Translations under genes and position numbers: made by a program
Notes under the pieces: generated by a model
What the model was told of the DNA's origin: nothing
The model's database searches: none
Seen by the model: only the letters and a program-made list of their open reading frames with translations
Part shown: positions 5,971 through 47,324 of the stretch, piece after piece
Layout: each line of letters begins with the position of its first letter
How positions within the stretch are numbered: the first letter of the stretch is position 1
Assembly (NCBI GenBank): GCA_040755005.1
Contig: JBFMBV010000007.1
Coordinates: 1,181-65,180, forward strand
Reading direction: 5' to 3'
Source: Bacillota bacterium
Lineage (GTDB): Bacteria; Bacillota; Sulfobacillia; JBFMBV01
Length of the DNA: 64,000 nucleotides

Positions 5971-6548
5971 TCCCCCAGGTATCTTGCCCGCAGGGCCTTG
6001 AAGTCTTCCCACACGGGCCGCTTCTTGCTGCTGTCCCTCAACAGGGCGGCGGGGTGGAAGGTCGGCAGGTACAGCCGTCCGTCCCGCTCGAACCACTGGC
6101 CCCGGACGCGCGAGATCCGCGCCTCCGCATTCAGCAGAGCTTGGGTGGCCGCCGCGCCCAGACACACGACGATGCGGGGTTTGACCGCGGCGAACTGCCT
6201 GTCCAGCCAGGGCCTGCAGGCCGCCACCTCCTCGGGGAAGGGGATGCGGTTGGCAGGTGGCCGGCATTTTACGGCGTTCGTGATGTAGACCGACGCACGG
6301 CTGAAACCAGCCGCCTCCAAGATCCGGTCGAGGAGTTTGCCTGCAGCGCCGACGAAGGGCCTGCCCAGTTCGTCCTCGGTCCGCCCCGGCCCCTCTCCCA
6401 CCAGCACGATCGCGGCGTGGGGGTCGCCCTCGCCAAAGACCACACCTCTGCACCCTGCCCGCAGTCCACACCGCCTGCAGCCGGCGGCCTCCCGGGCCAA
6501 ATCCTCAAGGACCATGGGGGCTGGCGCCTCGTCGAACCTCTGCTGCAT
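5967..6548 (-). CDS. Family 4 uracil-DNA glycosylase (Fe-S)
   Basis: CRRCGL, VGEGPG..ED..GRPFVGAAGKLL, YITNAVKCRPP, TFHPAALLR. Confidence 0.93.
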   Translation of the reverse strand: MQQRFDEAPAPMVLEDLAREAAGCRRCGLRAGCRGVVFGEGDPHAAIVLVGEGPGRTEDELGRPFVGAAGKLLDRILEAAGFSRASVYITNAVKCRPPANRIPFPEEVAACRPWLDRQFAAVKPRIVVCLGAAATQALLNAEARISRVRGQWFERDGRLYLPTFHPAALLRDSSKKRPVWEDFKALRARYLGE

Positions 6549-7670
6549 TCAGCCCTCCAGGATCTCCACATTGGCCCTGGGAATGGTGACAACTTCGCCT
6601 CCGGGCAGCCTGGCCCTGAGGATACGGACCTTGGCTTCGGTTTCGATCACCTGGAGCTCTGGCGGCAGTTCCACGACCTGGGCCAGTGCCCCGAAGTAGG
6701 GCTCGCGGATGATACGGACGGTGGTGCCCGGCACCAATCCCTCGCTGGCGGCCAGCGTCTTAACTGCACCCTTGGCCATGTGCCCCGGCACGATGACCTC
6801 AGGCCGCATGACCCCGGCCCTGATCTGAGTGGCGCCGTTGACTGAGGCGAACTTCCCTTCCAGCTGCTTAAAGAGGCTGAAGGTCTTGTCGGCCATGTTC
6901 ATCTGTCCGAAGCCTTCAGTGACGATGATGGTGAGGGCAATGTCCTCCTGTCCAGTGATGGCGACGCCGATATCATAACCCAAGAGGTTGATCAGGTCTG
7001 TATCAATGATCCCACCGCCGACCAAGCCCTTTGCCCCTACCTCGATGGCGCGCTTGATAGCAGGGCCCGTGATGACGGAACCACCCACGACGATATCCCC
7101 TGCGTGCGCCGGGGTCAGGTGCCGGGCCTCCAGTGGCTCGTCGGCCGCCGATACGGCTACCCTAAGGGTCCCGCTGGTCTCGCCGCCGACGCCGAAGATT
7201 CCCTGGATGAATGCCCCTTCGGTCTCGACGACCACACCCTCACCGGCGATGACCTCGACGATGGTGCCGTGGACATAGGCTGACACATCCAGGGGTATGT
7301 CGGCTTCCCTGATGATGGCCTGACCGGTCACCGGAGACATGCTTTGGAGGGTCCCGGAAACGGGCGCGCGGCAGTAGACCTTCGACAGCCCGAACCAGGA
7401 GATGCTCTTGGCAATCACCTCGTCCTTGGCCACGGCTTCCCCCACCTTCTTGACGAGGTGCGGGGCCAGGTACTCTGCGGGCATCCCCATGATGTTGGCG
7501 ACGTTGATCGTGACAGGATTGCCCGGCAACTTGGTCCTGGCGACCACTGTGTCAGGAGCGACCTTGTCGCCGACCTTCACCAGGACGTCGCCGGGGATGG
7601 GCAGGCGCCTGACTCTGCGCACGACAATGTGCTCGGTCACTTTGAGACCGGGAGTGTATGCGTGGGCCAT
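6549..7670 (-). CDS. Uncharacterised protein with barrel-sandwich-hybrid repeats, a Rossmann-like middle and a C-terminal KOW-like motif (paralog 1)
   Basis: VLVKVGDKVAPDTVVA, LVKKVGEAVAKDEVIA..RAPVSG, TEGFG, NGATQIRAGVMRPE, GTTVRIIREPYFG. Paralogous to 10661..12010. Confidence 0.8.
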   Translation of the reverse strand: MAHAYTPGLKVTEHIVVRRVRRLPIPGDVLVKVGDKVAPDTVVARTKLPGNPVTINVANIMGMPAEYLAPHLVKKVGEAVAKDEVIAKSISWFGLSKVYCRAPVSGTLQSMSPVTGQAIIREADIPLDVSAYVHGTIVEVIAGEGVVVETEGAFIQGIFGVGGETSGTLRVAVSAADEPLEARHLTPAHAGDIVVGGSVITGPAIKRAIEVGAKGLVGGGIIDTDLINLLGYDIGVAITGQEDIALTIIVTEGFGQMNMADKTFSLFKQLEGKFASVNGATQIRAGVMRPEVIVPGHMAKGAVKTLAASEGLVPGTTVRIIREPYFGALAQVVELPPELQVIETEAKVRILRARLPGGEVVTIPRANVEILEG

Positions 7671-7683
7671 GTGCGCGCCTCCT

Positions 7684-9534
7684 CTACTGACGCCCCAGGT
7701 AGCGCTGTAAGGCCGCCTGGGGGTAGATATCAAGGGCCTTGATCCACTGCAGCAGCTTGGTGCGGCGAGTGGCCTCATCGCTGGGCAGCCTGAAAGGACG
7801 GCCGCGGCAATCGACGATGAGCCCGACCACTCCACCCTCAGCCTTCAGCCGCAGGCTCCGACCCCTGCCCGCGCCAGCATCCAGCAGTAGGGCTGGCCTC
7901 ACCTCAACCTCCGCAGTGGTGCCCTCAGGGATCGCGAAAGCGTGGATCTGACCGAAGTCAACCGTGAACTCAGCCGGTCCGTCGGGCAGGCTCACCTTGA
8001 CGGAGACCGCCCGCTCGCCGTCGCGCAACAGGCCGATGGGGGCGATGCACGTGCCCAGCTTGATGAGGCAGTCCCTGTCGAACACCTGGGCGGCCGCTTG
8101 GGCATGGACAGTCGACAGGACCCCAAGCTGAGGCATCATGAAAATGGAGTCCACGGCCAACCGTGTGACGCCTTCCGGCAGGAAGCTGTCGATTAGCATC
8201 AGGGCCGCCTGCGCGCGCCTGGGGGCGTGGGACAGGACCCCTCCTGACCCGACCAGCATGCCCAGCCCCCTCATGTCCACCAGGGAGACATCGGTGCCAG
8301 CGGAGTCGACGAGCCCTCCCTCGCCATACTCCTTCTGAATGCCCCTCAGGCCCACGGCCAGGCTCTTGTGGTGCTCAAACGCCAGCCGCATCGCTTCGCG
8401 CGCCAGCGCCTGCTCAACGATAAGCTCCTCGACGGTGTGGGGGATAGTGGTAGGCCTGATCATCTTATTGCGGATACGGTTCCTCAGGTCCGCCTCGTCA
8501 AGGGGGAATGGCAGCCAGCGGACGAGACTGGCCACACCTGCCTCCAACAGGACGTTGCAGATGGAGTAACTCATGCCGAGGTTGGCGCTGACCGTGCGGT
8601 TGAACTTCTCCTCGAACAGGGAGAACACATCGGTGGTGGCCCCGCCGATGTCGACGCCGATTATGCTCATGTCATTCTCTTTGCCCGTGGTTTCGATGAT
8701 CAGCCCTACGGCGCCTGGCGTGGGCATGATGGGGACGTCGGTCCAGCGCATCAGCTTGTCGTATCCGGGCGCCTGGGCCATGACATGTTCCATGAACAGA
8801 TTGTGGATTTCCTCCCGGGCCGGGCCTAGGACTTCCCGTTCCAGCACCGGCCTGAGGTTGTCCACGATGCGCAAGTCGGTCTTGGCGTCGAGGATATCTT
8901 TGATGTAGGTCCTGGCTGCAACGTTACCGGCATAGATGATGGGGAGCTTAAACCCGATGCCGAGCCGCGGCCTGGGCTCAGCCGCTGCGATCAGTTCGGC
9001 GATCTGGACCACATGGGACACAGTGCCCCCATCGATCCCCCCGGACAGGAGGATCATGTCCGGGCGCAGGTGGCGGATGCGCTCGATCTTCTGGTGGGGC
9101 TTACGGCCGTCGTCGATGGCGATAGCATCCATCACGATGGCGCCGGCGCCCAGCGCCGCCCGCTCGGCGCTCTGCGCCGTCATGATCTTGACCACGCCGG
9201 CGACCATCATCTGCAGGCCACCCCCCGCGCTGGAGGTGGACAGGTACAAGTCCACCCCACCCTCCTGCCCCTGGGGCGTGATGACGCCTCCCTCGGACAG
9301 GAACTTGCGGCCGGTGAGCTCCTCTACTTCACGGATGGCGTTCCTGGCGCCCATAGTCACGTCTTCGAACGGCTTCTCGACTGTCGTGGGCGCTTCACCG
9401 CGCACGACCAGCCTGTACGCGCCATCCACCTTGTCGATGAGGATGGCTTTGGTCGTCGTGCTGCCGCAGTCGGTCGCCAGGATGGACCTAATCTCCCGGT
9501 CCCCTTGGTTCTTGTGCTTCGTTCCCCCTGCCAA
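7684..9534 (-). CDS. Glutamate mutase L (GlmL/MutL)-like ASKHA ATPase (paralog 1)
   Basis: Actin-fold motifs ATDCGSTTTK, LSGGIDGG, MPTPGAV, VDIGGATTDVFS, RTVSANLGMSYS, VGSGGVLSHAP. Probable TTG start at 9534. Confidence 0.85.
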   Translation of the reverse strand: MAGGTKHKNQGDREIRSILATDCGSTTTKAILIDKVDGAYRLVVRGEAPTTVEKPFEDVTMGARNAIREVEELTGRKFLSEGGVITPQGQEGGVDLYLSTSSAGGGLQMMVAGVVKIMTAQSAERAALGAGAIVMDAIAIDDGRKPHQKIERIRHLRPDMILLSGGIDGGTVSHVVQIAELIAAAEPRPRLGIGFKLPIIYAGNVAARTYIKDILDAKTDLRIVDNLRPVLEREVLGPAREEIHNLFMEHVMAQAPGYDKLMRWTDVPIMPTPGAVGLIIETTGKENDMSIIGVDIGGATTDVFSLFEEKFNRTVSANLGMSYSICNVLLEAGVASLVRWLPFPLDEADLRNRIRNKMIRPTTIPHTVEELIVEQALAREAMRLAFEHHKSLAVGLRGIQKEYGEGGLVDSAGTDVSLVDMRGLGMLVGSGGVLSHAPRRAQAALMLIDSFLPEGVTRLAVDSIFMMPQLGVLSTVHAQAAAQVFDRDCLIKLGTCIAPIGLLRDGERAVSVKVSLPDGPAEFTVDFGQIHAFAIPEGTTAEVEVRPALLLDAGAGRGRSLRLKAEGGVVGLIVDCRGRPFRLPSDEATRRTKLLQWIKALDIYPQAALQRYLGRQ

Positions 9535-9583
9535 CGCGCAGCCCCCTTCCGCGTTACCTGGGCGTTCGCCCAATCCTAGCAGG

Positions 9584-9612
9584 TATTCGTCGGGGAGGAG
9601 CGCAAACCCTTC
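9584..9612 (-). promoter_or_regulatory. SigH-like promoter for the GlmL-like paralog 1 / tsa operon
   Basis: GAAGGGTTT-12 nt-GACGAATA on the minus strand. Confidence 0.45.
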
Positions 9613-9638
9613 CCGGCTGTGCCGGGAAGGGTTTGCGC
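9600..9638. terminator. Perfect 18-bp inverted repeat (probable terminator)
   Basis: GCGCAAACCCTTCCCGGC-TGT-GCCGGGAAGGGTTTGCGC, just downstream of the 9657..10022 stop. Confidence 0.6.
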
Positions 9639-9656
9639 AGTCCTGTTCAGTTCAAA

Positions 9657-10022
9657 CTACTTTGCCTGTTCCCTACGTTCCTGGAGGCGGCGCCGCCGCT
9701 CCTCGGCGGCTGCCTTGGCGCGATCCCGCTCTTCCTCGTTGGTCCGCTCCTGGGCTTCTTCGATGAAGGTGATGAGCACGTCTATGTTACGCCGGTCTTC
9801 CAGGAGCATGGCGAAGTCCTCGAGGTCCTGATAGGGAAGGAAGATCCCCGCTACAGGGTTGACGAAGTGCAGGAACTGGGATGCCAAGAACGCGAGGGGA
9901 CGGTTCGATTCCAGGAAGAAGATGGCGGCAGCCGTCAGCCCCCGCTTCGCCACTTGGTTGGCGATGAAACTGAAGAGCTCATTGCGGCGCACTTCCGAGA
10001 CTCTGGTGTCGATTGACCTCAC
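9657..10022 (-). CDS. Hypothetical protein with a charged coiled-coil C-terminus
   Basis: 121 aa ORF, FFLESNRPLAFLASQ motif, coding-like codon use. Confidence 0.7.
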   Translation of the reverse strand: MRSIDTRVSEVRRNELFSFIANQVAKRGLTAAAIFFLESNRPLAFLASQFLHFVNPVAGIFLPYQDLEDFAMLLEDRRNIDVLITFIEEAQERTNEEERDRAKAAAEERRRRLQERREQAK

Positions 10023-10194
10023 CCCGTCCGCGGGATTCGATTGAAGCGTGTTTCTACAACTGCGCGACCGTTTCCTGCCAGTAGCTTGGCTGGAACCACG
10101 TTCCGTATGCGCACTCAGCAGGAAATAGCCAGCGCTTGTGGAAATATGTCAGAATTGACACCGTTCAACACAGCCTGGACATTTTGGAGGGGGA

Positions 10195-10587
10195 ATGTCT
10201 GTGCGCAGACTGGTGGTGTGTGGCTTGATAGGCGCCTTGCTCCTGGCCGTCACCGGCTGCATGGCCACGGCAAACGCCGACGTCGTAGTGCGCGAGTATC
10301 TTGACCTGGTCATCAAGGACGACCTGGACAAGGCCTATGCCCTGCTGACCGCGGTGGCCAAGGCCGACTATCCCAAAGACAGATACCTGGCCGACATGGC
10401 AGCGACCGAGGCGGAGCTGGGCGCCCTGAGCTCCTACAAGGTCACCGGGCAGCGGATGCCTGGGTCGACTACAGCCTCGGTGACCGTGACGCTGACCTAC
10501 ACGAGAGACAACGCGACCAAGCAAGTCCCCTTCGTCTTCGGCTGCTTCAACGAGCGGGGCCAGTGGCGCATAGCCAACTACAAGTAG
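10195..10587 (+). CDS. Putative lipoprotein (NTF2-like/DUF4878-like)
   Basis: RBS GGAGGGGG; lipobox LLLAVTGC; YL..D..KAYALL and C-terminal ERGQWRI. Confidence 0.75.
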   Translation: MSVRRLVVCGLIGALLLAVTGCMATANADVVVREYLDLVIKDDLDKAYALLTAVAKADYPKDRYLADMAATEAELGALSSYKVTGQRMPGSTTASVTVTLTYTRDNATKQVPFVFGCFNERGQWRIANYK

Positions 10588-10605
10588 CGCCTGCCCTGCA
10601 CGCTT

Positions 10606-10636
10606 AGGGGGGGAGGGTCCATCGCCCTCCCCCCCT
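10606..10636. terminator. Hairpin between convergent genes
   Basis: AGGGGGGGAGGG...CCCTCCCCCCCT stem. Confidence 0.5.
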
Positions 10637-10660
10637 GTCTTCGTGGGAACCGGCCCTAGC

Positions 10661-12010
10661 TCAGAACACCTCCAGGTTTGCGCGGGGAACGACTGCCTGC
10701 GTCCCGCACTCCAGTTCGACCTCGGCCACGGGCACCTTGGCCTCAGTCTCGATGACCACGGGCTCGCGGGGGATGCCCACGATCTTGCCCAAGGCGCCGA
10801 AGTGCGGATCGCTGATGACGCGCACCATCTGGCCCAGCTTAAGGTCCTCCTCCACGGAGCGCTGGCTGACCAAGGCGCCCGCGTAGTCAGGATAGGCCAC
10901 GATGATCTCGGGGCGGATGGCCCCGGCCCTGATTTGGGTAGCCCCGTTAATCGAGCCGTCCTGCCCCTCCATGGCCTTGAGCAGGTCGAACACGCCCTGG
11001 CGCATGGCAAGGTGGCCGAACCCCTCCATCAACACCAGCGTCACGCTGGTGTCCTCTTGCCCGGTGATGCCGACGCCCAGTTTGACCCCCAGGGAGTGGA
11101 TGATGGCCAGATAGGAGGCGGTCGCGGCGATGATGCCCTTGACACCGACCCTGGCGGCCTTGGCCAGCGCCTCGTCGGCCACGTGGGCCCCGCCGACCAG
11201 GATGCAACCCGCGTGTTCTGCCGATATCCCGTCCTCGGTCAGGACGTCGCCTGGGCCGTCGACGACTACCCGCAAGGGCCCGTGAGTTTCCCGGCCAACA
11301 CCGAAGATGCCGGTGATACGGACGGCTGGCGCTTCTACCACCACTCCCCGGTGGGGCAACACCTCTGCGACCCGCCCGTGCATATAACCCTTAATTATGA
11401 CTTCCTTGAACGGCCTGGCAATGGTGACCAGCCCGGTCTGGGTGTTGACCTCAGCGATGATCCCGGAGATGGGCGCGCGTACGGCCTTAGTGAAAAAGGC
11501 AGCCTGCTCACCCTTCTTGGCAAAGATCTGCTCTTTCTTAACCTCATCCCCGACCTTGCGCAGCATGCACTTAGGCAGATCGGCCGGCTTGACCCCCAGT
11601 TCGAAGGCGGCATCCACCTTGACCGGCGGCTCTTCCTTGCCGAACTCCTCGCGGATGACCACCCGTCCCGATCGGGCCGAGATGTCCTCCACCACCCCAT
11701 CGGTGGGCGACTCCAGCTCCTTGCGCCCGTAGATGCCCCGCAGGGCTCTGGCATACACCTGCTTGTGGCCGACCCGGTCCCCGACCTTCACCGCCATGGC
11801 TTCGGGGAGGTCAGCGGGCTCGATGCCGAGCAGGCGTGCAGCCGGCACGACCCAGGGAATGCCGGGCCGCAGGCTGATCTTGGCTACCGGCGTGTCCGGG
11901 GCCACTAGGTCACCGTTGCCGACCAGCACATCGCCGGGGAGAGGCAGGCGCCTGACCTTCCTGACCAGTTCGATTGGCAGGCTACCGTCGGAACAGAGAG
12001 AAAACGCCAC
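10661..12010 (-). CDS. Uncharacterised barrel-sandwich-hybrid/KOW protein (paralog 2, one extra repeat)
   Basis: Repeats VLVGNGDLVAPD / AVKVGDRV..ESPTDG / LRKVGDEV..RAPISG; MEGFG; NGATQIRAGAIRPE; GQMVRVISDPHFG. Confidence 0.8.
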   Translation of the reverse strand: MAFSLCSDGSLPIELVRKVRRLPLPGDVLVGNGDLVAPDTPVAKISLRPGIPWVVPAARLLGIEPADLPEAMAVKVGDRVGHKQVYARALRGIYGRKELESPTDGVVEDISARSGRVVIREEFGKEEPPVKVDAAFELGVKPADLPKCMLRKVGDEVKKEQIFAKKGEQAAFFTKAVRAPISGIIAEVNTQTGLVTIARPFKEVIIKGYMHGRVAEVLPHRGVVVEAPAVRITGIFGVGRETHGPLRVVVDGPGDVLTEDGISAEHAGCILVGGAHVADEALAKAARVGVKGIIAATASYLAIIHSLGVKLGVGITGQEDTSVTLVLMEGFGHLAMRQGVFDLLKAMEGQDGSINGATQIRAGAIRPEIIVAYPDYAGALVSQRSVEEDLKLGQMVRVISDPHFGALGKIVGIPREPVVIETEAKVPVAEVELECGTQAVVPRANLEVF

Positions 12011-13895
12011 GCTTCTCGCCCCCCTTCTCCAGCTTGGCGGCGGCTTTCACAGGGCTCTTGGCCAGGTACTCCTCGAGTTTGTCCACGGGGTACAGTTCCA
12101 TGGTGCGGACCCACTCCATCAGCAGGGCCGAGCGCTGCTTGGGGTCGTCGGGCACGGCCAAGGGCCTGCCTCTGGTGTCGACCACGATGCCAACCAGCCC
12201 GCCGTGAACTTCGCGTTCCACCGGCTTGCCCTTGACTCCCCCAAGGTCGAAACCGGCGGCGGGTACAGCGACCACGTGGGCTTTCTCTCCCACCTTGAGC
12301 TCGTACCGCTTGAGCTCACCGAAGCCGACCTTCTCCTTCACTACCTTCCCATCGGGGAAAGTGATGGTCAGGTCAAGACAGGGCTGCTTAGGCCGCCCCC
12401 GCCCCAAGGGGGCGATGCACGTACCCAGACGCACGAGGCAGTCTTTATCGAACACCTCGGCGGCGATGTCGGGGTGAGTGGAAGCGAGCACGCCCAAATG
12501 TGGCATCATGAAGATGCTGTCAACCGCCAGCTGCGTGAACCCCTGGGGTTCAAAGGCGTCGATCAGCATCATCGCGGCCTGGGTCCGGCGGGGAGCATGG
12601 GACAGGACGCCGCCTGACCCCACCAGCATGTCCAGGCGCATCATGTCAATCAGTTCAACGCCCGTGACCCGCCACAGTTTGCCCTGGTTGGAAAAGCTGC
12701 CTACCAGGCTGGCATCCTGTTGCTCGATCTTCCTGGCCAGTTTCTTGTGGTGTTCGAAGGACAGGCGCAGGGCCTCCCTGGCCAACGCCTGCTCGAGGAT
12801 GAGCTTGTCCAAGGTCTGGGGGATGGTGGTGGGCCTGACCATCTTGTTGGATATCCAGTCCGACAACCCCTCCGAGTCGGTCTCGAACGGCACCCACCGG
12901 CGGATGTTCTCTTCCTTCGCTTCCTCCATCACGTTGCAGATGGAATAGCTCATGCCCAGGTTCGCACTGACCGTACGGGTGAAGTTGCCGTCAAAGTTGG
13001 AAAAGACATCGGTGGTGGCGCCGCCGATGTCCACGCCGATGATGTTAGCCGAGTATTTCTCCGCCATCAGTGAGATGATGCTGCCAACAGCGCCGGGGGT
13101 CGGCATGATGGTGCCATCCACCCACTGCATCAGCTCGCCGTACCCGGGCGCTTGCGCCATCACGTGGTTCATGAACAGATCATGGATCGCTTCCCGGGCC
13201 GGCCCGAGATTCTCCACATCGTGCCTAGGCCTGAGGTTCTCCACCAGGTGCACGTCGAGGTTCTCCCCGGCGATGCTCATGATCAGATCCTGGGCATCGA
13301 TATTCCCGGCATAAACCAAGGGGAGCTTGTAGGAGGCCCCGAAGCGCGGCTGGGGGTTGGCCTGGACGATGGTCTCGGCGATGGCCGCGATATACGCGAC
13401 CGACCCGCCGTCCACGCCGCCCGACATGAGGATGATGTCCGGCCGCAGTTCGGTGATGCGCGTGATCTGCTCCGACGTTGAGCGGCCGTCGTCCACGGCG
13501 ATCACGTCCAACACGACAGCGCCGGCGCCCAGGGCCGCCCTGTGGGCACTGATGGCGCTGATGGTCGAGACCAGGCCGGCGACCATCATCTGCAGGCCGC
13601 CCCCGGCGCTGGAAGTAGACACATAGTAGTCCACGCCCTTGCTCCCGGACAGGGGCCTAACCAACTTTCCGGACGCGTCCAAGATGGGGCGTTGGATTAG
13701 CTCCTCCACCCGCTTGACCGACTTGCGCACTCCGATCATCACATTATCCCACGGCGCCTCGACCGTAGTAGGCATCTCGCCGCGAGTAACCAACCGGTAT
13801 TCGTCCCCGCGCTTCTCGATGAGGATGGCCTTGGTCGTGGTGCTGCCGACGTCGGTGGCCAGAATGGACGTCGGAGCCCTGCTTGCCGCCATCAC
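11982..13895 (-). CDS. Glutamate mutase L (GlmL/MutL)-like ASKHA ATPase (paralog 2)
   Basis: ATDVGSTTTK, MSGGVDGG, MPTPGAV, VDIGGATTDVFS, GSGGVLSHAP; strong RBS AGGAGGGG. Confidence 0.85.
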   Translation of the reverse strand: MMAASRAPTSILATDVGSTTTKAILIEKRGDEYRLVTRGEMPTTVEAPWDNVMIGVRKSVKRVEELIQRPILDASGKLVRPLSGSKGVDYYVSTSSAGGGLQMMVAGLVSTISAISAHRAALGAGAVVLDVIAVDDGRSTSEQITRITELRPDIILMSGGVDGGSVAYIAAIAETIVQANPQPRFGASYKLPLVYAGNIDAQDLIMSIAGENLDVHLVENLRPRHDVENLGPAREAIHDLFMNHVMAQAPGYGELMQWVDGTIMPTPGAVGSIISLMAEKYSANIIGVDIGGATTDVFSNFDGNFTRTVSANLGMSYSICNVMEEAKEENIRRWVPFETDSEGLSDWISNKMVRPTTIPQTLDKLILEQALAREALRLSFEHHKKLARKIEQQDASLVGSFSNQGKLWRVTGVELIDMMRLDMLVGSGGVLSHAPRRTQAAMMLIDAFEPQGFTQLAVDSIFMMPHLGVLASTHPDIAAEVFDKDCLVRLGTCIAPLGRGRPKQPCLDLTITFPDGKVVKEKVGFGELKRYELKVGEKAHVVAVPAAGFDLGGVKGKPVEREVHGGLVGIVVDTRGRPLAVPDDPKQRSALLMEWVRTMELYPVDKLEEYLAKSPVKAAAKLEKGGEKRGVFSLFRR

Positions 13896-14028
13896 AAACC
13901 CCTCCTATGCTGTGTCCGTCCGGTGGCAGTCTCGCATGGTGGCATCGCTGAATGTGACAGTTTCCAGGGCAGAGGGCCCGCAGCCGTGAGTTGATGTTCA
14001 GTGCAATCCTGCCAGTTAGCTTCGCGGA

Positions 14029-14056
14029 AAGAGCCCACTCCGGAGAGTGGGCTCTT
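14029..14056 (-). terminator. Rho-independent terminator after the membrane-protein operon
   Basis: AAGAGCCCACTC-CGGA-GAGTGGGCTCTT perfect stem just after the stop at 14075. Confidence 0.75.
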
Positions 14057-14074
14057 GTGCCCGCGTAGCAGCGA

Positions 14075-14698
14075 TTACCTAAAGACCGTGTTGGGGAAGG
14101 TCTTCAGGAGGAAGAACGCGCGACCGTAGAAGGTAGCGGCACGAGATATCACCGTGCCACCGAAGCCTGCTCCTAGGGCCGCCATGATGGCGTACCTGCC
14201 GATGGTGGCAGCCACGTTCATCAACGGGTTCTCCCGCTTGATGGTGAAGAAGAAGTACGCGATCGAGCAGGTCAGGAAGATGAAGAACAGGATGTTATTA
14301 ACCGTGACGCCAGGCGTCTTCCCCTGGAACTTGATGAAGCTGTCGATGATCTGGCCGAGCATCGGGCGCGGGTCATAGGCGAAGCTGTACCCGATACCGT
14401 AGCCCACCCAGTACGACATGGGGATGCGGGCGATCCAGGCGATCTTGGGGAAGAACCTCGTGTAGATGAGGAGGCCGCCGACCACAGGAATAATGTAAAG
14501 CAGTTTCTGATCCTCGAGGATGTATTTCATGAGGATCATCTTCCCTGTGCCGTGCCAGCTCATGACCAAAATGTGCGCGGTGGATAGACCAAGCATCACG
14601 TGTTCCAGCAGCCTGAACACGGGGTTCTCCTTATAGAGATAGGAGAGAACGCCCAGCGTGACCAAGGTCGCAACCCAGGCCTGAATAGGTGTCAGCAC
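14075..14698 (-). CDS. Uncharacterised integral membrane protein (about 6 TM)
   Basis: Hydrophobic 207 aa; SYLYKENPVFRLLEH, YFFFT, GRYAIMAALGAGFG; RBS AGGAGGTGA. Confidence 0.8.
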   Translation of the reverse strand: MLTPIQAWVATLVTLGVLSYLYKENPVFRLLEHVMLGLSTAHILVMSWHGTGKMILMKYILEDQKLLYIIPVVGGLLIYTRFFPKIAWIARIPMSYWVGYGIGYSFAYDPRPMLGQIIDSFIKFQGKTPGVTVNNILFFIFLTCSIAYFFFTIKRENPLMNVAATIGRYAIMAALGAGFGGTVISRAATFYGRAFFLLKTFPNTVFR

Positions 14699-14748
14699 TC
14701 ACACTCACCTCCTTGCTTCAGAGTCGACAAGGTGGCCTTCCACCGTGG

Positions 14749-15588
14749 TTACTTCTTCTTGCTGAGCACGTAGCCGACATTGCCCAAGATGATGACGACA
14801 ATGATCAGCGCGTGGACAGCAGCCTGGGAATCCATGCCAGCCGTGCCGTCGCCGAGCCTGCCGACGAGCGACTCGTACTCAGCAGCGCCACTCATGCCCA
14901 CAACCAGGCCCTTATACTGGCCGGAACGGATGTAGGGCATCTTGCCGGGACCGCTGATGCCGGTGCAGACCACGACCATCGGCACGCCCTTCTCCTTGTC
15001 GGCATCGGGGCTTACCGTGGACAGATAGTCCGCATCTCCTGGACGCCCCGTGGTCAGATCGACCACCAGCTCCACATACGGACGGGTCAGCTGCGGCACA
15101 GCCTGGATGAGAGGCATCGTGGACAGCGGCCTGCCCATGATGTCCGAGTCGGACGCGGCAGCGACGATCCCCTGGGTCATGTTGCGGAGCACCGTGGCGG
15201 CCATGGGCTTCCAGCCCAGGTCGACCCAGTCGACCCCATACTCCTTGTTGAACTCCTTGGCGATTGCGCTCAGCCAAGCATTGTTCAGCATCGCGCCGGT
15301 CTCCCACATGGAGTAGAGGATGACCTTGTGCCCGCTCTTGAAGAGCTGCCTGGCGATGGCCTGGCCGGTCGGGGTCAGCTCAGGGGCGGATGACATGTCA
15401 TAGTCGCCGCCGAGCCACACCACGGAGTTCGGGGGCAGCTTCTCGATGTACTCGAAAGCCTGCCGCGTCTCCGCCGAAACCGAGACGGGCAACCCAATGG
15501 GCCTTAGCATCGGGACAGCGATCGCGGCAAATACCACCAGGTAGATGATCCGCGCATCGATTTTCTGCAGCTTCTCGAAGATGTTCAC
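14749..15588 (-). CDS. Uncharacterised membrane-anchored protein (N- and C-terminal TM, large soluble domain)
   Basis: PIGLPVSVS, SSAPEL, YGVDWVDLGW, SGQYKGLVVGMSGAAEYE, MDSQAAVH; RBS GGAGGAGGTG. Confidence 0.8.
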   Translation of the reverse strand: MNIFEKLQKIDARIIYLVVFAAIAVPMLRPIGLPVSVSAETRQAFEYIEKLPPNSVVWLGGDYDMSSAPELTPTGQAIARQLFKSGHKVILYSMWETGAMLNNAWLSAIAKEFNKEYGVDWVDLGWKPMAATVLRNMTQGIVAAASDSDIMGRPLSTMPLIQAVPQLTRPYVELVVDLTTGRPGDADYLSTVSPDADKEKGVPMVVVCTGISGPGKMPYIRSGQYKGLVVGMSGAAEYESLVGRLGDGTAGMDSQAAVHALIIVVIILGNVGYVLSKKK

Positions 15589-15642
15589 CTGCGTACACCT
15601 CCTCCCTTAAGAGGTCAGATACTTAGCTGGCGTCCGGTAGGC

Positions 15643-16275
15643 CTAATGCATGCTGCCACCGAGACCACCCAGGTGCGAACGCTCGAGGCCAAGCAACAGG
15701 CGAAGAGACACGGCAAACATGCCGATATAGCCGCCTAGGTCGATGGCGCGGAAAGCCGCGCTAGCGGGCACCCTCAACAGCCAGTTGCCGGCATTGGGAA
15801 TCTCGGACCAGATCATCTTGCCCAGGGCAACCCTGGTCAGCATGACCGTGATACCGCACAGCAGCAGCACGGTGGCTTCCTTGGTCCGAATGCGGAACGC
15901 ACGGTACGCAGCCGATGCGACATAGAAGATGAGTAGCGAGAAGATCGTGGAGTTGATCGGAGTCCAGATCGCATCGAAGATCCACTTGTAGGTTACGCCC
16001 TGATTGGTCGTCCTCCACCCAAGCAGTGTGTAGAAGACCAAACAGGCCAGCGCTACGACGCTGAAGATCCAACCTTCCTTGCGGCGCCTGATGTGGCCCA
16101 AGTGGATGCGGAAGATGTTGATCGCACCTACGAACATGGCGGCCACACCGGTAGTGGTGAACGCCAGGCTGAAGGTCTGCAGGAACTTAGTATCCCAGCC
16201 CCACTGGGTCATGCGGAACACCACGACCGTCAGCGCCGTAACGAAGGTGAGGAGAAGCGGCAACTCCTTGCGCAC
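15643..16275 (-). CDS. Uncharacterised integral membrane protein
   Basis: Multi-TM 210 aa; PINSTIFSLLIFYVASAAYRAFRIR, LRLLLGLERS. Confidence 0.8.
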   Translation of the reverse strand: MRKELPLLLTFVTALTVVVFRMTQWGWDTKFLQTFSLAFTTTGVAAMFVGAINIFRIHLGHIRRRKEGWIFSVVALACLVFYTLLGWRTTNQGVTYKWIFDAIWTPINSTIFSLLIFYVASAAYRAFRIRTKEATVLLLCGITVMLTRVALGKMIWSEIPNAGNWLLRVPASAAFRAIDLGGYIGMFAVSLRLLLGLERSHLGGLGGSMH

Positions 16276-16322
16276 AGGTACACCCCCTTTGCCCCTGGAT
16301 TGGAGCCATGGTAGTCATGGGG

Positions 16323-17135
16323 CTACCTCCTCAGGAAGTCGGCCAGGACGTTCTTGGCCTGGACGTTCTGAAGGATGGTGCCGACGAAGATGAGCACGAA
16401 GACCAGGATGCGGACCATGTCCTGCCCGATGACGGATCCGACCAGCACGGGCTCCCTGGAAACGTAGGCGCCCGCCGCGAAGATCTCCTCACCGATCAGC
16501 GTGTAGTCGCAGGCGGTGATGAACCACGGCAGCTGGAAGGTGGACAGGGTGCCGGCGATCTGGACGGCCCCGGCGTTGTGCGCGCCTTCCGCGAGCAGCA
16601 TGGCCTCGGCCATGAAGTGGCCAATCATGATATTGGCCGCGATCTTCTCGCGCTGGAAGATACCGAGGCAGGCAGCGGTGTAGGTGAACTGCCAACCCGA
16701 GAGGTAGCGCACATCGTCTGCGTTGAAGGCGTCGGGACGGCCAGCCTCAAGATACGACTGTTTGATGATCTCCTCGTTGACAGTCAACACCTGGTAGTCA
16801 TTGTTGGTGTTGATCAGCCGGGTGTCGTACTTGGCGCAGAGCTTCGCCACGTGGGCCAGGATCGCCCAGAACGCGAAAGTGGACGGGGTGCTCACGTAGC
16901 CAAGTCCAGAGGTGGTATGCACCGGGCGCCCCATTTCCGTGGCGCGGCCCACCGCCTCGTCAATGGCCTCGAGGCCGTTGATCTTGCGGATGGGGGGAAC
17001 GGGCATTCCAGCCTTGGCCCTGCTGATGAAGAAGTACACGAAGGCGAGTACGACCATGAGGAAGATGAACGGAACCATCTGACCCTTCACCCAGAACGTC
17101 TTCGGAGCCGCCGCAGCAGCCAGTTGAAACAACAT
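16323..17135 (-). CDS. DUF6754-like membrane-anchored protein
   Basis: IRKINGLEAIDEAVGRATEMGRPVH, AEAMLLAEG, GAVQIAGT..QLPWFITACDYTLIGEEIFAAGAY (family recognised from memory). Confidence 0.75.
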   Translation of the reverse strand: MLFQLAAAAAPKTFWVKGQMVPFIFLMVVLAFVYFFISRAKAGMPVPPIRKINGLEAIDEAVGRATEMGRPVHTTSGLGYVSTPSTFAFWAILAHVAKLCAKYDTRLINTNNDYQVLTVNEEIIKQSYLEAGRPDAFNADDVRYLSGWQFTYTAACLGIFQREKIAANIMIGHFMAEAMLLAEGAHNAGAVQIAGTLSTFQLPWFITACDYTLIGEEIFAAGAYVSREPVLVGSVIGQDMVRILVFVLIFVGTILQNVQAKNVLADFLRR

Positions 17136-17210
17136 CTATCTTTCACCTCCTTCCCCACTTGGGGGTTATAAGCAGCAGGCCCGAATCTGGGCCCCGCTTG
17201 CTTGGGCAGG

Positions 17211-17240
17211 ATATTCGCCCAAGGTGACTGTAATTCCTTC
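17211..17240 (-). promoter_or_regulatory. SigH-like promoter of the DUF6754 operon
   Basis: GAAGGAATT-13 nt-GCGAATAT on the minus strand, about 75 nt upstream of the ATG at 17135. Confidence 0.55.
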
Positions 17241-17299
17241 TTTCGACAGGCAATTTTTCGTGAGATAGCCAATCGCGTAACCACTCTGCACAGCTGCGC

Positions 17300-17788
17300 T
17301 TAGTGCCGGCGCCTCGGTGCCCGCGCCTCATTCGCCGGCAGCTTTGTCCCGGCCGGCCGCTCCAGCTTCCGAGCAACGATGGCCATGATCGCCTCCCGGT
17401 GACCTCCATAGTACAGGAACACGCCTTTCAGGATGCGGCCGCGCAGATCCTGCGGAAAGGCCAGCAGGACCCCGTCGGGGTAGGCCGTGTAGCCAATGAA
17501 GCGCGACCATTTCTTGTACTCCGGGGCGATGAAGTTCATCCAGGTCACCCCGGCCTCGCTCAGCTGGTAGCGGTTGGGGAACAGATAGGGCGCCAACGCC
17601 CCCATCAGCCCCACCGTAGCTGCGAGCGTGTAGGACCAGTGCCCATACAGCACCTGTACCACCGCCAGCAACGCAATCACGCCCACAATCACCGCCGCAG
17701 CCGTCACCGGCCTCTTTGTCAGCGGATGGTGGCTCCATTTCAGCAGAGGCCGGGTATCCTCGTCCGGCCTCGCCTCTGGTCGTGTCAC
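17300..17788 (-). CDS. Two-TM protein with a C-terminal soluble (YcxB/bacterial PH-like) domain
   Basis: LKWSHHP, two TM helices, PYLFPNRYQLSEAGV..KKWSRF..GVLL. GTG start overlaps the upstream stop. Confidence 0.65.
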   Translation of the reverse strand: MTRPEARPDEDTRPLLKWSHHPLTKRPVTAAAVIVGVIALLAVVQVLYGHWSYTLAATVGLMGALAPYLFPNRYQLSEAGVTWMNFIAPEYKKWSRFIGYTAYPDGVLLAFPQDLRGRILKGVFLYYGGHREAIMAIVARKLERPAGTKLPANEARAPRRRH

Positions 17789-18975
17789 CTCAAGTCCTCC
17801 CCCCGTGACCTCTGCTTGCGTCCAAATGCGGACAGGACTAGACCCATCAGCGGATAACGGTACTGAAGCCGCATGGCCCGTTGCGGGCACAGCTCGTGGC
17901 AGCACAAGCAGCCAATGCAGCGCCTAAGCTGTAGCTCCGGGCGGCCTCGCTGCATCGTCACGGCACTGACCGGGCAGTTCGCTACGCAGGCCGCACACCC
18001 GTTGCACCCCGGGCCAGGCACAGGGTCGCTCTTAATCAACCCCCACCCCAGCCGCATCAGCCAGGGCGGTATTCGGGCTATGGCGCTGTTCGGCAGCTTC
18101 AGCGGCCGGCAAACCGAGGCCAGGGGCACCCCAATCAACTCAATGCCCTCCAGCGAGACTGGCCCCAGACCACGCGCGGCTGCCCGCCGCAGGACAGGCA
18201 CGCGCCCCGGGTCCACGCCAGCCATGGCCGCAGCCACCGTGTCCAGGGCGATGCCGTCCCTGGACGCGACCAGGCAGCGTGTCCACACCGGCGCACCGGC
18301 CGAGGGCCCATCCCCTTCCATGGCCAGGACGGCGTCGAGGATGTTCAACCGGGGCCGCACGGCGAAATAGATATCGAGCAGGCAGTCGGCGAAGTCGTCC
18401 ACAACCGGGCACAGCCTGTGATACTCGCCCTTGCCCACTCCGGGCACGGTACCGAACATGTTCTTGACGGCCGCGCTCAACAGGGTCAGCGTATGGGTCT
18501 TCAGCTTGGGGAGGTTGATGATGGCCTGTGCCTCCACCGCCGCCCTGGCTAGATGCAGGACGCGCACCCTGGCCCCAGGCCTCCCTACCTCCACAGCCAC
18601 GGCCCTGTCGCCGTCGAAGTTGACCGGCTGCCCCCCAGCCCTGGCCAGGGCAGCATTCATCCCGCTGCCGCTGTACACGGCCCGGGCGCGGTTCGGGTTG
18701 GTCAGGCCTCCGCCGGGGCTGTCCCCACCGAGGGGAATGCCCCCGGCGGCGGCCACTGCGCGTGCAACAGCTTCGATCACGGCCGGGTGCGTCGTCACTG
18801 CAGTCTCCCACGGCCGGGAAGATAGCAGGTTAGGTTTGAGCAGCACGGTCTCCCCGGGCAGGACGATGTCCTGCAGCCCTCCGGTGAGTGCGATGCAATC
18901 CGCGACGGCGGAGGCGACTGCCTCCTGGTTGTAGTCGTTGCAGCGGACGATAGCGACGATCGGCTTGCCGCTCAA
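17785..18975 (-). CDS. DUF362 domain protein with C-terminal 2x[4Fe-4S] ferredoxin
   Basis: VLLKPNLL..VTTHP, INLPKLKTH..AVKNMFG, EGDGP; CNGCAACVANCP and CIGCLCCHELCP. TTG start with GGAGGT. Confidence 0.88.
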   Translation of the reverse strand: MSGKPIVAIVRCNDYNQEAVASAVADCIALTGGLQDIVLPGETVLLKPNLLSSRPWETAVTTHPAVIEAVARAVAAAGGIPLGGDSPGGGLTNPNRARAVYSGSGMNAALARAGGQPVNFDGDRAVAVEVGRPGARVRVLHLARAAVEAQAIINLPKLKTHTLTLLSAAVKNMFGTVPGVGKGEYHRLCPVVDDFADCLLDIYFAVRPRLNILDAVLAMEGDGPSAGAPVWTRCLVASRDGIALDTVAAAMAGVDPGRVPVLRRAAARGLGPVSLEGIELIGVPLASVCRPLKLPNSAIARIPPWLMRLGWGLIKSDPVPGPGCNGCAACVANCPVSAVTMQRGRPELQLRRCIGCLCCHELCPQRAMRLQYRYPLMGLVLSAFGRKQRSRGEDLR

Positions 18976-19061
18976 GCGGACCTCCATGTGTCGGGATGGC
19001 GGAGGTATTCGCCGCTGGCTGCGGCTGCTCCTCTTGGTACACACCCTCAGCATCCCTGCAG

Positions 19062-20543
19062 CTAGGCTTCGGTCTGTCCCAGCACCACGATGGTGCTCTC
19101 CCGCATGGCGCGCAGCGCCGGCCAGATCCCGAAAGCTAGGGAGACGCCCACCGTCCAGCTCAGGATGCGGGCGCCCACCCGCAACGTCTCCAGGGCGATT
19201 TGGCTGAAGGAGGCGGTGGTGAAAGCCAGCAGACCGACCCAGACCAGACGCATGCAGACAAACCCCGCCGTGGCGCCGACGAGCCCAAACACCAGGGCCT
19301 CGGTGAGCAAGAGGATGAACAGCTCGAGGCCGCTGGCGCCTATGGCCTTGAGCACGCCGAGTTCGCGGCGGCGTTGCAGCGCCAGGACGTGCATATTGCC
19401 CGCCAACAGCAGGCCGGCCACGAGCCAGCACAGGGCGACGATGTACCTGGTGGCGTCCCAGGCCGCCAAGGCTTGCCCGCGGCGGGTCAGCATGCCGCCG
19501 GCTGCCTCGGGTACGGTAATCACCGTCACGCCGGGCAGGGCCCGTTGCAGCTCGGCCGCCACCAGTTTGGACTGGAGCATGTCGTCCACGGTCACACCGA
19601 AGGCAGGGACAGCCTGCAGCGGCTCACCGTTGACTTCCTCAAACAGGGCGAGCCACGTGGAGGCGGGGACGAACACATCCTCGCCGCTCCAGTAGAACTG
19701 GATGACAGGCGCAGGCAACTCATCTGCTCCGCTCAAGCCCGGCACCCCGAACCCAGAGATAGGACGGTCTGCAGGCAGAAGCTCTGTGGGCGCCTGGTAG
19801 CGCCCCACGGCCAGCAACTCTAACTCGCTGACACGGCTGAAATCGAAGCTTGGGGCCCCCTGCCAGTACCCGGCCAGGGCAGGCAGTAAGAGGTCCAACT
19901 GGTCGCCGACCTTGGTCTCCGGCTGGGGAGCGTAGACGTTGACCAGGGCCACCCGCGACCCTGCGTCCGCGACAGTCAGGGACCGCCCGTAAGACCTCGT
20001 GCCGGTCACACCGGGGACCAGCGTAGCCAAGGCCTCGGCGCCACCGCCCTCAAGATGGCGGCCGATCAGGCGGACCGGCCTCAACCCGATGACCGCACCG
20101 GTCTCGTCATCTGCTACGACGCGCAAGGCGGGCCAGATCAACCGTGGGGTGACGGCAGCCACTCCAGGGACTGCAGCCGCCCGTGCCAGCAGCCCATCCA
20201 GGGGTAGGCCGAGGCGGCGCTCTTCCAGCCGGCGCAGCTGGCCCTCGACGATGATGTTGGGGTAGAAGAACGTCAGCTCAGGAGGGGCGGCCAAGGTAGG
20301 CCAGTCACACACGAGCGCGGGGTCAGAGTCTGCGTGGGTGAAGCGGAACTCACCCGGGAAGACGAAGATGTCCGCGCCGAAGAGGACACGGTAGCGAGCG
20401 TAGGCGCCCGTGGTGTAGCCTGTCGGCATGGCCGTCGCCCCCGTGAGGATTGCTGCCGCCAAAGCCATGGCCAGTATCGCCAGGAGGCTACGGTTCACGT
20501 TCAGGGTGACGTTACGCCAGGCCAAACGCAAGAGGATCGTCAT
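19062..20543 (-). CDS. ABC transporter permease, FtsX/MacB family
   Basis: LRLAWRNV..RSLLAIL; QRRRELGVLKAIGAS; LTEALVFG; WPALRAMR. Confidence 0.85.
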   Translation of the reverse strand: MTILLRLAWRNVTLNVNRSLLAILAMALAAAILTGATAMPTGYTTGAYARYRVLFGADIFVFPGEFRFTHADSDPALVCDWPTLAAPPELTFFYPNIIVEGQLRRLEERRLGLPLDGLLARAAAVPGVAAVTPRLIWPALRVVADDETGAVIGLRPVRLIGRHLEGGGAEALATLVPGVTGTRSYGRSLTVADAGSRVALVNVYAPQPETKVGDQLDLLLPALAGYWQGAPSFDFSRVSELELLAVGRYQAPTELLPADRPISGFGVPGLSGADELPAPVIQFYWSGEDVFVPASTWLALFEEVNGEPLQAVPAFGVTVDDMLQSKLVAAELQRALPGVTVITVPEAAGGMLTRRGQALAAWDATRYIVALCWLVAGLLLAGNMHVLALQRRRELGVLKAIGASGLELFILLLTEALVFGLVGATAGFVCMRLVWVGLLAFTTASFSQIALETLRVGARILSWTVGVSLAFGIWPALRAMRESTIVVLGQTEA

Positions 20544-20552
20544 GGCGCCCTC

Positions 20553-21722: not shown

Positions 21723-22411
21723 GTCGCTTTCACCTCGATGTCACCGATGACCCCGTCGGTCATCCGCACGACGCGGTGCGCGTAGTCGGCAAAGACGCCA
21801 TCGTGGGACACGACCACGAAGGTCTGACCGTTTTCCACGTTGAGTTTGCGGAAGAGGCGCCGGATCTCCTCGCTGTTCTTGGTGTCCAGGTTGCCTGTGG
21901 GTTCGTCCGCCAGCACCAGCGCAGGCTGGTTCGCCAAGGCCCTGGCGATGGCTACCCGCTGCTGCTCACCGCCGGACAGCTCATGGGGTGAGTGATTCGC
22001 CCGGTGCAGCATGCTCACAGTCCCCAGCAGCTCCTCGATGCGGGCGTTGATGACGGCCGGCCTGGCCCCTGCCAGGCGCATTGGCAGGGCGATGTTTTCC
22101 GCGGCGCTGAGGTCATTGAGCAGGTTGAAGAACTGAAAGACGAACCCCAGCTGCCGCCGGCGCAGGCGGGCCAGACCCGTCTCTCCCAGCTTGCTGTAGC
22201 GTTGTCCGTTGAGGACCACGTCGCCATGGGTCGGCTTGTCGAGTCCGCCCAGCAGGTTGAGCAGGGTGGTCTTGCCACAGCCTGACGGGCCCACAATGAC
22301 TACGAACTCACCGGGGATCACGTCGAGGCTGACATTATGCACGGCGAACACGCCGTCGCCGATGCCGAACCACTTGGTCAGGTTGATGCCCTTGAGCAGC
22401 GCATGGCTCAA
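21719..22411 (-). CDS. ABC transporter ATP-binding protein (LolD/MacB-like)
   Basis: [46 protein letters not shown]. Confidence 0.95.
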
Positions 22412-22547
22412 TCGCCGCACCTCCGTCAGCGTCCCCGGGCTGCGCGGCCCGGTTCACCCTTATTACGACAGAGCGTAAGGATTGGTTCCAGGACCGAAAG
22501 ACATGGGCGGTGCCGTGGCACCGCCCGCAGCTCGTTGCTTCCGGACG

Positions 22548-23411: not shown

Positions 23412-23437
23412 TACCCCCACACCCTTCCCGTAGGCTC

Positions 23438-25287: not shown

Positions 25288-25293
25288 CTCAGC

Positions 25294-42305: not shown

Positions 42306-42341
42306 AAGTCCTCCCGGATTGCACAGCGTAGCCGTGCAGTA

Positions 42342-46421: not shown

Positions 46422-46449
46422 GTCGGACACCTCCGGCATAGTGGCTCAC

Positions 46450-47322: not shown

Positions 47323-47324
47323 CC

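Follow-up and report, generated by a model that had tools for sequence, protein, structure and literature searches.

A conserved two-module block of membrane proteins and GlmL-family ATPases in a Bacillota genome, with a candidate role in nutrient uptake

Canonical members of the GlmL/MutL family of actin/Hsp70-fold (ASKHA) ATPases accompany B12-dependent mutases. The diol dehydratase reactivase DdrAB combines an ATPase of the same fold with a swivelling-type domain and a small subunit, and acts on another protein complex. In group II energy-coupling factor (ECF) transporters, one energising module is shared by many membrane components, each specific for its substrate. We know of no described transporter class that uses the actin/Hsp70 fold as its power unit. 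Here, we analyse a block of genes from a Bacillota bacterium of the class Sulfobacillia (assembly GCA_040755005.1), which encodes two GlmL-family ATPases, a partner protein for each, and a series of membrane proteins (Table 1). The stretch examined, hereafter the window, comprises 64,000 nucleotides of contig JBFMBV010000007.1 (contig C7), and the genome assembly spans 1.89 Mb in 57 contigs with 97.4% completeness.

The block very probably belongs to a real and conserved system that has so far escaped description. It is built of two modules and is not a single operon-bound complex. Module A is a four-gene membrane cassette that starts with a DUF6754 protein, and module B comprises the ATPase and its partner together with a protein with two transmembrane (TM) segments and a small protein. 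The first-pass annotation of the window had proposed a translocon energised by ASKHA ATPases. A conserved membrane unit linked to the ATPases has emerged from the analysis, but the one-to-one complex and the binding-protein subunit included in that proposal have not. No publication on DUF6754 or PF13941 was found in the literature searched; further papers may exist. Among the matches listed for GlmL, MutL, glutamate mutase and ASKHA, none describes such a system in its title or at the start of its abstract.

Conservation of the cassette was assessed in two samples of loci. The first comprises 20 loci around the DUF6754 genes of class relatives, in which genes were identified by tblastn with the window proteins. 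The order of DUF6754 protein, 210-amino acid (aa) protein, 279-aa protein and 207-aa protein is kept in all 21 cassettes of this sample, one of which is cut by a contig end. The second comprises 40 further loci picked from DUF6754 matches that lie away from MutL matches. Here, the four-gene order is fully labelled in 36 of 41 cassettes, and the remaining five are contig ends or ambiguities in calling open reading frames (ORFs). The membrane genes therefore form a conserved unit, as had been suspected from the window alone. Genes for an ATPase and partner are present in only 6 of the 20 loci of the first sample. DUF6754 was detected in 19 of 41 class genomes, with 1-28 matches per positive genome, and the highest copy numbers are 28, 11, 10, 8 and 7. 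A scan of genome contigs with the single DUF6754 protein returned one locus, at 67% identity. None of the ten block proteins matches an ATP-binding cassette (ABC), BPD_transp or ECF family in Pfam or NCBIfam.

Crude hydropathy analysis suggests two strong TM segments each in the DUF6754 protein and the 279-aa protein, and about five to six each in the 210-aa and 207-aa proteins. The DUF6754 protein matches PF20539 above its gathering score (302.9 bits, profile positions 8-252 of 257). A core of about 200 aa between its N- and C-terminal TM helices is highly conserved, with a mean column identity of 52% among 22 homologues, and searches of the PDB by sequence and profile yielded nothing meaningful for this subunit. 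There are at least 1161 long relatives of the protein. In all eight that were examined, the DUF6754 part is C-terminal and is preceded by fn3 repeats, BamB-like propellers or an OmpA-like domain. Because these additions are of extracytoplasmic types, we infer that the conserved core, which follows the first TM helix, is cytoplasmic and thus on the same side of the membrane as module B.

AlphaFold2 models the 279-aa subunit (mean pLDDT 92.8) as a Rossmann-like alpha/beta domain flanked by one TM helix at each terminus. A basic N-terminus, together with a KKK tail at the C-terminus, suggests that the alpha/beta domain is extracytoplasmic. This protein had been considered substrate-binding-like, a designation that is not supported: it has no Pfam or NCBIfam match, and in a Foldseek search of the PDB the matches listed include only generic Rossmann/SDR-type folds (TM-scores of 0.2-0.34) and no binding protein. 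Its neighbours in the Atlas are unnamed clusters only, for which the commonest phyla include Bathyarchaeota, Fidelibacterota, Latescibacterota, Planctomycetota and Chloroflexota. The 210-aa subunit is polytopic with invariant Arg residues, and neither it nor the 207-aa subunit has a Pfam, NCBIfam or PDB sequence match. The idea that these two proteins form a pseudo-symmetric pair like that of Rnf/Nqr rested only on an RnfC_N/NqrA_N barrel match in the partner and on subunit sizes. It was dropped because the two families are not detectably related by hhalign (probability 1%).

Module B is centred on the ATPases. Both copies in the window match PF13941 at full length (403 and 416 bits against a cut-off of 27, profile positions 1-450), and the DxGSTTTK, DIGGATTD and GSGG motifs previously noted in them are intact in both translations. 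Each extends about 125-150 aa beyond the C-terminal end of the match. No solved relative was found in the PDB by sequence or profile. When ORFs from 40 loci and two regions of the window's own genome were clustered, 41 ATPase ORFs and 43 partner ORFs were obtained. In the maps of 28 loci, each ATPase is directly followed by a partner except at contig ends. Moreover, fusions of ATPase and partner of about 1000 aa exist in other lineages: PF13941 is present in 69 of 70 long relatives of the partner, which originate from Planctomycetota, Neomarinimicrobiota, Aegiribacteria and Fermentibacteria according to NCBI records, and one class relative also carries such a fusion. The ATPase and partner are a fixed unit.

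In five loci of class relatives (L165-L169), a MutL-like domain only 25-32% identical to the window ATPases is embedded in proteins of 1209-1355 aa. These are not fusions of ATPase and partner.

Relatives of the partner fall into 2429 clusters at 50% identity (E ≤ 1e-3). The AlphaFold2 model of partner-1 (mean pLDDT 89.3) predicts a lipoyl-like barrel, a central part that combines a barrel with an alpha/beta domain, and a further, KOW-like barrel at the C-terminus. Searches of the PDB with the partner profile matched only NusG/Spt5 KOW domains and lipoyl/biotinyl barrels, and Foldseek with the model found NusG/Spt5 KOW domains and a weak match to BesA, with no whole-chain relative. An alignment of 40 homologues reveals the conserved motifs GIFGVGGE, TEGFG and NGATQIRAGVxRPE and no recognisable catalytic motifs or residues. 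In the same alignment, partner-2 differs from partner-1 by an extra barrel-sandwich insert of about 75 aa.

Two further proteins accompany the ATPase and partner. The 2-TM gene precedes ATPase-partner pairs in 12 class loci and 16 metagenome loci. Its product has a long hydrophobic stretch from residues 67-85 onward and a C-terminal beta-rich domain. It had been described as PH-like, a label without support from Pfam: no bPH or other family was matched in Pfam or NCBIfam at E ≤ 0.01, and the protein resembles bPH proteins only in its topology. Its start is uncertain because 12 homologues align only from about residue 45, and the true start is probably downstream of position 17905. The small protein is helical and has a charged tail and a single stretch of weak hydrophobicity. 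Fourteen homologues were found between or before ATPase-partner pairs, and tblastn detects matches in many metagenome loci.

Some metagenome loci depart from this composition. In six (L113, L123, L131, L133, L149 and L153), a gene for a 256-282-aa protein, which has no Pfam family in the L113 copy, lies between the ATPase and partner genes, and its product may be a further subunit in some lineages. In six others, partner homologues of about 50% identity lack an adjacent ATPase gene and are followed by a gene for an uncharacterised protein of about 293 aa (L100, L107, L109, L121, L122 and L156). Genes for AccA and an Era-type GTPase follow the lone partner in L121, with a LarA-like gene upstream, and lone partners have LpxB upstream in L156 and DnaK upstream in L100.

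The two modules tend to occur in the same genomes. Counts read from the class genome searches show long-type MutL matches (open frames of at least about 600 aa scoring 300-431 bits) in all 19 class relatives that carry DUF6754, versus 1 of the 22 that do not (G008). The MutL match is within 15 kb of a DUF6754 match in 11 of the 19. In an even sample of 201 genomes from the phylum, which was searched for DUF6754 and the partner, 14 genomes have DUF6754, 13 have the partner, 12 have both and 186 have neither. The two genomes with DUF6754 only are G056, which is 78% complete, and G140, where the match is weak and partial, and one genome (G047) has the partner only.

Gene order also links the modules. 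Within the class, the recurrent order of module B is 2-TM protein, ATPase-2, partner-2, small protein, ATPase-1 and partner-1. This order appears without a cassette in five loci, and a sixth (L071) has the 2-TM protein and a single ATPase-partner pair, likewise without a cassette. In the window and in four further loci (L047-L050), the cassette sits as an insertion behind the 2-TM gene, and in L054 it stands after the 2-TM gene and before two small-protein genes and a single pair. A metagenome scan with the partner alignment recovered at least 483 relatives, of which 80 loci with G+C contents of 33-73% were returned. Sequence conservation across these metagenomes is high, at 49-63%. The usual order is 2-TM protein, small protein, ATPase, partner and one to three cassettes (L096, L099, L101, L120, L129, L142, L160, L164 and others). 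In L102 the cassette lies on the upstream side, L131 has divergent cassettes, and the order of the window recurs in L091. Among 41 loci with at least 6 kb of flanking sequence on one side, the ATPase gene is directly upstream of the partner gene in 25, and DUF6754 is present in 10 of 25 loci with an ATPase versus 1 of 13 without. For the 57 partner genes with at least 2 kb of upstream sequence, the ATPase gene is directly upstream in 36, and the 256-282-aa gene intervenes in six.

Co-occurrence, repeated adjacency and the variety of gene orders uphold the earlier suggestion that the ATPases and membrane genes are linked, although cassettes usually lack an ATPase gene nearby. The further suggestion of a one-to-one complex of ATPase and translocon is wrong because most cassettes are without a nearby ATPase gene and the copy numbers of the two modules are independent. 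At best, an ATPase unit is shared among cassettes.

A 707-aa metagenome protein (P0126) consists of a partner, a signal-peptide-like stretch, an fn3-like segment and DUF6754. Because the junction resembles a signal peptide, we do not count it as a partner-DUF6754 fusion. It is evidence for adjacency only, and may be a genuine membrane-threading fusion or the product of reading through from one gene into its neighbour. A predicted complex of partner-1 with the DUF6754 core (residues 38-238) scored 0.06 against a mark of 0.32, a result that counts neither way.

Neighbouring genes offer clues to the substrate. The conserved class island that holds module B has genes for a PALP enzyme, C26, S58 and M55 peptidases, a DUF4438 protein, an M20 peptidase and asparaginase II on its upstream side, and genes for an amidohydrolase and a uracil-DNA glycosylase on its downstream side. 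The family found most often near cassettes is that of the amidohydrolases, with 5 members among 139 neighbours in one sample and 9 among 141 in the other, followed by M20, C26, asparaginase II, PALP, DAO, GntR/FCD regulators and major facilitator superfamily proteins. Ten genes lie directly 3′ of cassettes on the same strand, and seven of these encode peptidase or amidase types: Amidohydro_3 twice, M81 (MlrC-like), DUF885, an MA-clan peptidase, an M14 carboxypeptidase and a protein of the beta-lactamase fold. The other three encode a peptide-binding SBP_bac_5 lipoprotein, a molybdopterin oxidoreductase and an unassigned protein. As judged by eye and by hydropathy, the SBP_bac_5 product is the only one of the ten with a signal sequence, which is present in none of the seven hydrolases. 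An arrangement in which genes for cytoplasmic hydrolases stand in line with a membrane unit that has multiplied is what would be expected of substrate-specific uptake. These neighbours of cassettes and of the block fit a peptide or amide substrate, to that extent in support of the first-pass annotation, which had suggested peptides or amino acids. Amidohydrolase genes are exceptionally numerous in the class relatives G012, G037 and G028 (55, 48 and 38 Amidohydro_1 matches), whose genomes span 2.9-3.8 Mb and also carry the most DUF6754 cassettes.

The reading that we prefer, with a probability of roughly 0.4, is a modular uptake system in which cassettes for peptide-like or amide nutrients are served by a shared, membrane-tethered ATPase-adaptor that docks on the DUF6754 core. 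The DUF6754 protein, the two polytopic proteins and the protein with the extracellular alpha/beta domain would together form an uptake channel. Cassettes would constitute a family of such channels that differ in their specificity for peptide-like or other amide nutrients, expanded to many copies in some genomes, with dedicated cytoplasmic hydrolases for each copy. In module B, the cytoplasmic GlmL-family ATPase would be bound to the three-domain partner acting as adaptor, to which it is fused in other phyla, and the 2-TM protein and the small helical protein would hold both at the membrane. Module B would then dock on the cytoplasmic DUF6754 core and power or gate the cassettes that are being produced. 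What we infer in this model is transport as such and its direction, together with the substrate class, the docking and the use of ATP. A bolder version, in which the ASKHA ATPase-adaptor is the shared motor of interchangeable four-subunit cassettes that each feed their own hydrolase, and which would amount to a new class of ATP-driven importer, is put forward only tentatively.

Several observations weigh against this reading. No ATPase gene is nearby in 14 of the 20 cassette loci of the first sample, and neither ATPase nor partner is found in any of the 40 loci of the second, which were chosen away from MutL matches. The copy numbers do not track one another, with 1-28 cassettes versus about 2-8 long ATPases per genome, and one relative has about six long ATPases and a single cassette. 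The co-occurrence counts overstate the evidence because related genomes are not independent. Likewise, adjacency within the class may reflect a single insertion, given that six class loci keep module B syntenic without a cassette. About a dozen lone partner homologues exist, several of them followed by the 293-aa gene, AccA and Era. FtsX-type ABC genes, which have their own ATPase, adjoin the pairs in 5 of 28 loci (the window, L046, L067, L073 and L074). The excess of amidohydrolases near cassettes is modest, at 14 of 280 neighbours (5%) in genomes that hold 10-55 matches each, and is about three- to four-fold at most. The absence of a binding-protein fold among the Foldseek matches listed for the 279-aa subunit is a further point on this side.

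Of the alternatives, the most probable is that module B is a maintenance factor resembling a chaperone or reactivase and not a motor. Like GlmL and the diol dehydratase reactivase, it would spend ATP on assembling, opening or repairing its clients, here the cassettes and other membrane proteins, in which case the cassettes would be secondary transporters or membrane enzymes. We regard this as unlikely. The ATPase is of the GlmL/MutL family, whose canonical members are found with B12 mutases, as seen in the OraE cluster of this same genome (described below), and the pattern of one ATPase unit serving many cassettes, with the copy numbers of the two varying independently, would suit a catalytic helper. 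A helper of this kind could also explain why pairs adjoin FtsX-type ABC systems that already have an ATPase, and the partner is built from adaptor-type barrels without recognisable catalytic motifs. However, nothing that could be a cofactor-bearing client is apparent, a dedicated subunit would account equally well for the strict co-occurrence with DUF6754, and the comparison with diol dehydratase reactivase is one of analogy.

A less probable alternative is that the modules act separately, with the ATPase-partner pair being a soluble, two-subunit ATP-dependent enzyme for the breakdown of peptides or amides, of the hydantoinase/oxoprolinase type, and the cassette being the transporter of that pathway, in the way that other cassettes have ordinary amidohydrolases beside them. 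Weak matches to Hydantoinase_A and Hydant_A_N point in this direction, as do the location of pairs in the conserved class island of S58, M55, M20, C26, asparaginase II and amidohydrolase genes, the high sequence conservation across metagenomes, and the many cassettes that have no pair nearby. Yet the Hydantoinase_A match is confined to residues 289-332 of ATPase-1 (25 bits, about 44 of 291 profile positions). No Hydantoinase_B match was found for the partners in Pfam, so that the pair does not have the composition of HyuA/HyuB enzymes, and no catalytic residues are evident in the partner. The pair always travels with the 2-TM protein and the small hydrophobic protein, and is present in 12 of 14 and 19 of 19 cassette-bearing genomes, which would not be predicted for an optional pathway enzyme.

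Similarly improbable is a machine of the cell envelope, such as an exporter, an inserter or a wall-anchored, stator-like device that is driven from the cytoplasm. The domains added to long DUF6754 proteins, including the OmpA-like domain of a peptidoglycan-binding type, the fn3 repeats and the BamB-like propellers, fit such a machine as well as they fit uptake. The same is true of genes for MotA/ExbB (4 of 150) and ExbD (3 of 150) among the neighbours of pairs in metagenome loci, and genes for MacB-type FtsX and HlyD proteins adjoin some pairs. Against this stands the presence of up to 28 paralogous cassettes with different cytoplasmic hydrolases and GntR-type regulators, which is a pattern of substrate-specific uptake and unlike that of a single envelope machine.

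It is most improbable that the ATPases serve, as ordinary GlmL-type helpers, a B12-dependent mutase whose gene lies elsewhere: they belong to PF13941 and NCBI records call such proteins 'glutamate mutase L', but no GlmE (PF06368) match exceeds its cut-off anywhere in the nearly complete genome, the OraE aminomutase has a GlmL-type gene of its own, and the 25 families most often seen near pairs in 39 metagenome loci include none linked to B12. The genome carries four PF13941 genes, of which two are in the window, one is a third long copy on contig C4 and one is a short copy on contig C14. The short gene follows OraE in a complete-looking cluster for ornithine fermentation (C14, positions 17963-25733), which also includes Ord, OrtB and an Orr-like racemase that scores below its cut-off. 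OraE scores 1324 bits and has a B12-binding domain, and the short GlmL-type protein reaches 589.9 bits on the Or-4 model (NF040744), just under the cut-off of 600. By comparison, ATPase-1 and ATPase-2 score 213 and 217 bits on this model, and the scores on the GlmL model (NF040745, cut-off 475 bits) are 212 for ATPase-1, 223.3 for ATPase-2 and 245.8 for the third long copy. The one B12 aminomutase found is thus served by a canonical helper gene beside it. The long copies make up a different subfamily, defined by the partner, and are not helpers of an adjacent or orphan B12 mutase, in agreement with the original view of the window.

The window itself contains no B12-binding or GlmE match, consistent with the earlier remark that it lacks a B12 mutase gene. 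Just before it, at positions 729-956 of the contig and about 6.8 kb beyond the block, a 516-aa open frame includes a weak match to a B12-binding domain (22.5 bits versus a cut-off of 32.1). The third long ATPase gene is followed by a gene for a 450-aa partner (C4, positions 42277-47527). Immediately upstream of this pair are EtfB and a ferredoxin-fused EtfA, and two ABC exporter-type genes follow it. In two related loci (L080 and L082), the pair has an SBP_bac_5 gene before it and no link to Etf was seen.

The layout of the block is summarised in Table 1. All of the genes that had been listed for it were found on the minus strand where they had been placed, in a window with a G+C content of 59-71%. 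The block had been regarded as co-directional, which is contradicted by a lipoprotein-like ORF on the plus strand. This ORF occupies the 638-nucleotide gap that separates the partner-2 gene from the small ORF, and splits the block. Because the run of minus-strand genes is interrupted in this way, the block probably comprises at least two transcription units. A scan of positions 6000-19600 for consensus promoters and terminators gave counts no higher than in shuffled sequences. For positions 8000-17900, a search of sequencing runs listed no RNA data set; the runs found were five of DNA, from two studies. A homologue of the DUF362/4Fe-4S protein encoded upstream of the block occupies the equivalent place in L047, and another is near a cassette in L182.

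Table 1. Features of the block and its surroundings, with positions in the window.
Feature	Position	Strand	Size and matches
FtsX/ABC genes	19062-22420		Upstream of the block
DUF362 protein with C-terminal 4Fe-4S dicluster domain	17785-19431	minus	Directly upstream of the 2-TM gene, overlapping its longest ORF
2-TM protein (module B)	17300-17905	minus	Longest ORF 201 aa; no Pfam/NCBIfam match
DUF6754 protein (module A, subunit 1)	16323-17135	minus	270 aa; PF20539, E 2e-90
Membrane protein (module A, subunit 2)	15643-16275	minus	210 aa; no family (Pfam, NCBIfam)
Membrane protein (module A, subunit 3)	14749-15588	minus	279 aa; no family (Pfam, NCBIfam)
Membrane protein (module A, subunit 4)	14075-14698	minus	207 aa; no family (Pfam, NCBIfam)
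ATPase-2 (module B)	11982-13895	minus	637 aa; PF13941, E 1.7e-120, residues 11-486
Partner-2 (module B)	10661-12010	minus	449 aa; RnfC_N barrel 27.7 bits, weak KOW
Lipoprotein-like ORF	10195-10587	plus	130 aa; lipoprotein-type signal sequence; weak DUF3887/DUF4019, E about 0.003
Small ORF (module B)	9657-10022	minus	121 aa; no family (Pfam, NCBIfam)
ATPase-1 (module B)	7684-9573	minus	Longest ORF 629 aa; PF13941, E 2.2e-124, residues 31-502
Partner-1 (module B)	6549-7835 (longest ORF); probably 6549-7670	minus	428 aa (longest ORF); probably 373 aa, MAHAYTPG start

If the two modules work together as proposed, bacteria of many phyla would carry a membrane system that is powered by an actin/Hsp70-fold unit, and the labels of the Atlas clusters for the 279-aa subunit include an archaeal phylum. 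This would be the first transporter family to be driven by an ASKHA ATPase rather than by a P-loop ATPase or an ion gradient. The numbers of partner clusters and long DUF6754 proteins given above indicate that the system is common. In current annotation, the ATPase is named for glutamate mutase and the membrane subunits are nameless or labelled as DUF proteins. Because of such labels, metabolic reconstructions from sediments and bioreactors probably miss a major route for peptides or amides. In addition, the multiplied cassettes beside distinct cytoplasmic hydrolases provide direct and testable pairings of transporter and substrate.

Among known systems, the resemblance to hydantoinase/oxoprolinase A subunits (PF01968, PF05378) consists of weak local matches at the phosphate-binding motifs of the ASKHA fold and a neighbourhood of amide catabolism, but only a small part of the profile is matched and there is no HyuB-type partner. 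GlmL/MutL and Or-4 belong to the same ASKHA family as the window ATPases, which match PF13941 at full length with intact nucleotide-binding motifs. The window ATPases differ from them by scores less than half the NCBIfam cut-offs, by the additional C-terminal region, by an obligatory and often fused partner gene, and by the absence of a mutase neighbour in a genome that keeps a separate canonical copy beside OraE.

The likeness to DdrAB is one of analogy, in which an actin/Hsp70-fold ATPase acts with an accessory subunit on another complex. In the system of the window, separate chains carry the domains, no B12 client is present and the setting is membrane-linked. In the whole-chain fold search with partner-1, no PEP-utiliser or DdrA chain was among the matches listed. 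The comparison with group II ECF transporters is likewise one of analogy. The present system has no P-loop ABC ATPase and no homology to EcfT or S components, and its putative transport cassette has four subunits. What the two appear to share is their organisation, in that many interchangeable membrane units and a few cytoplasmic ATPase units are encoded apart from one another.

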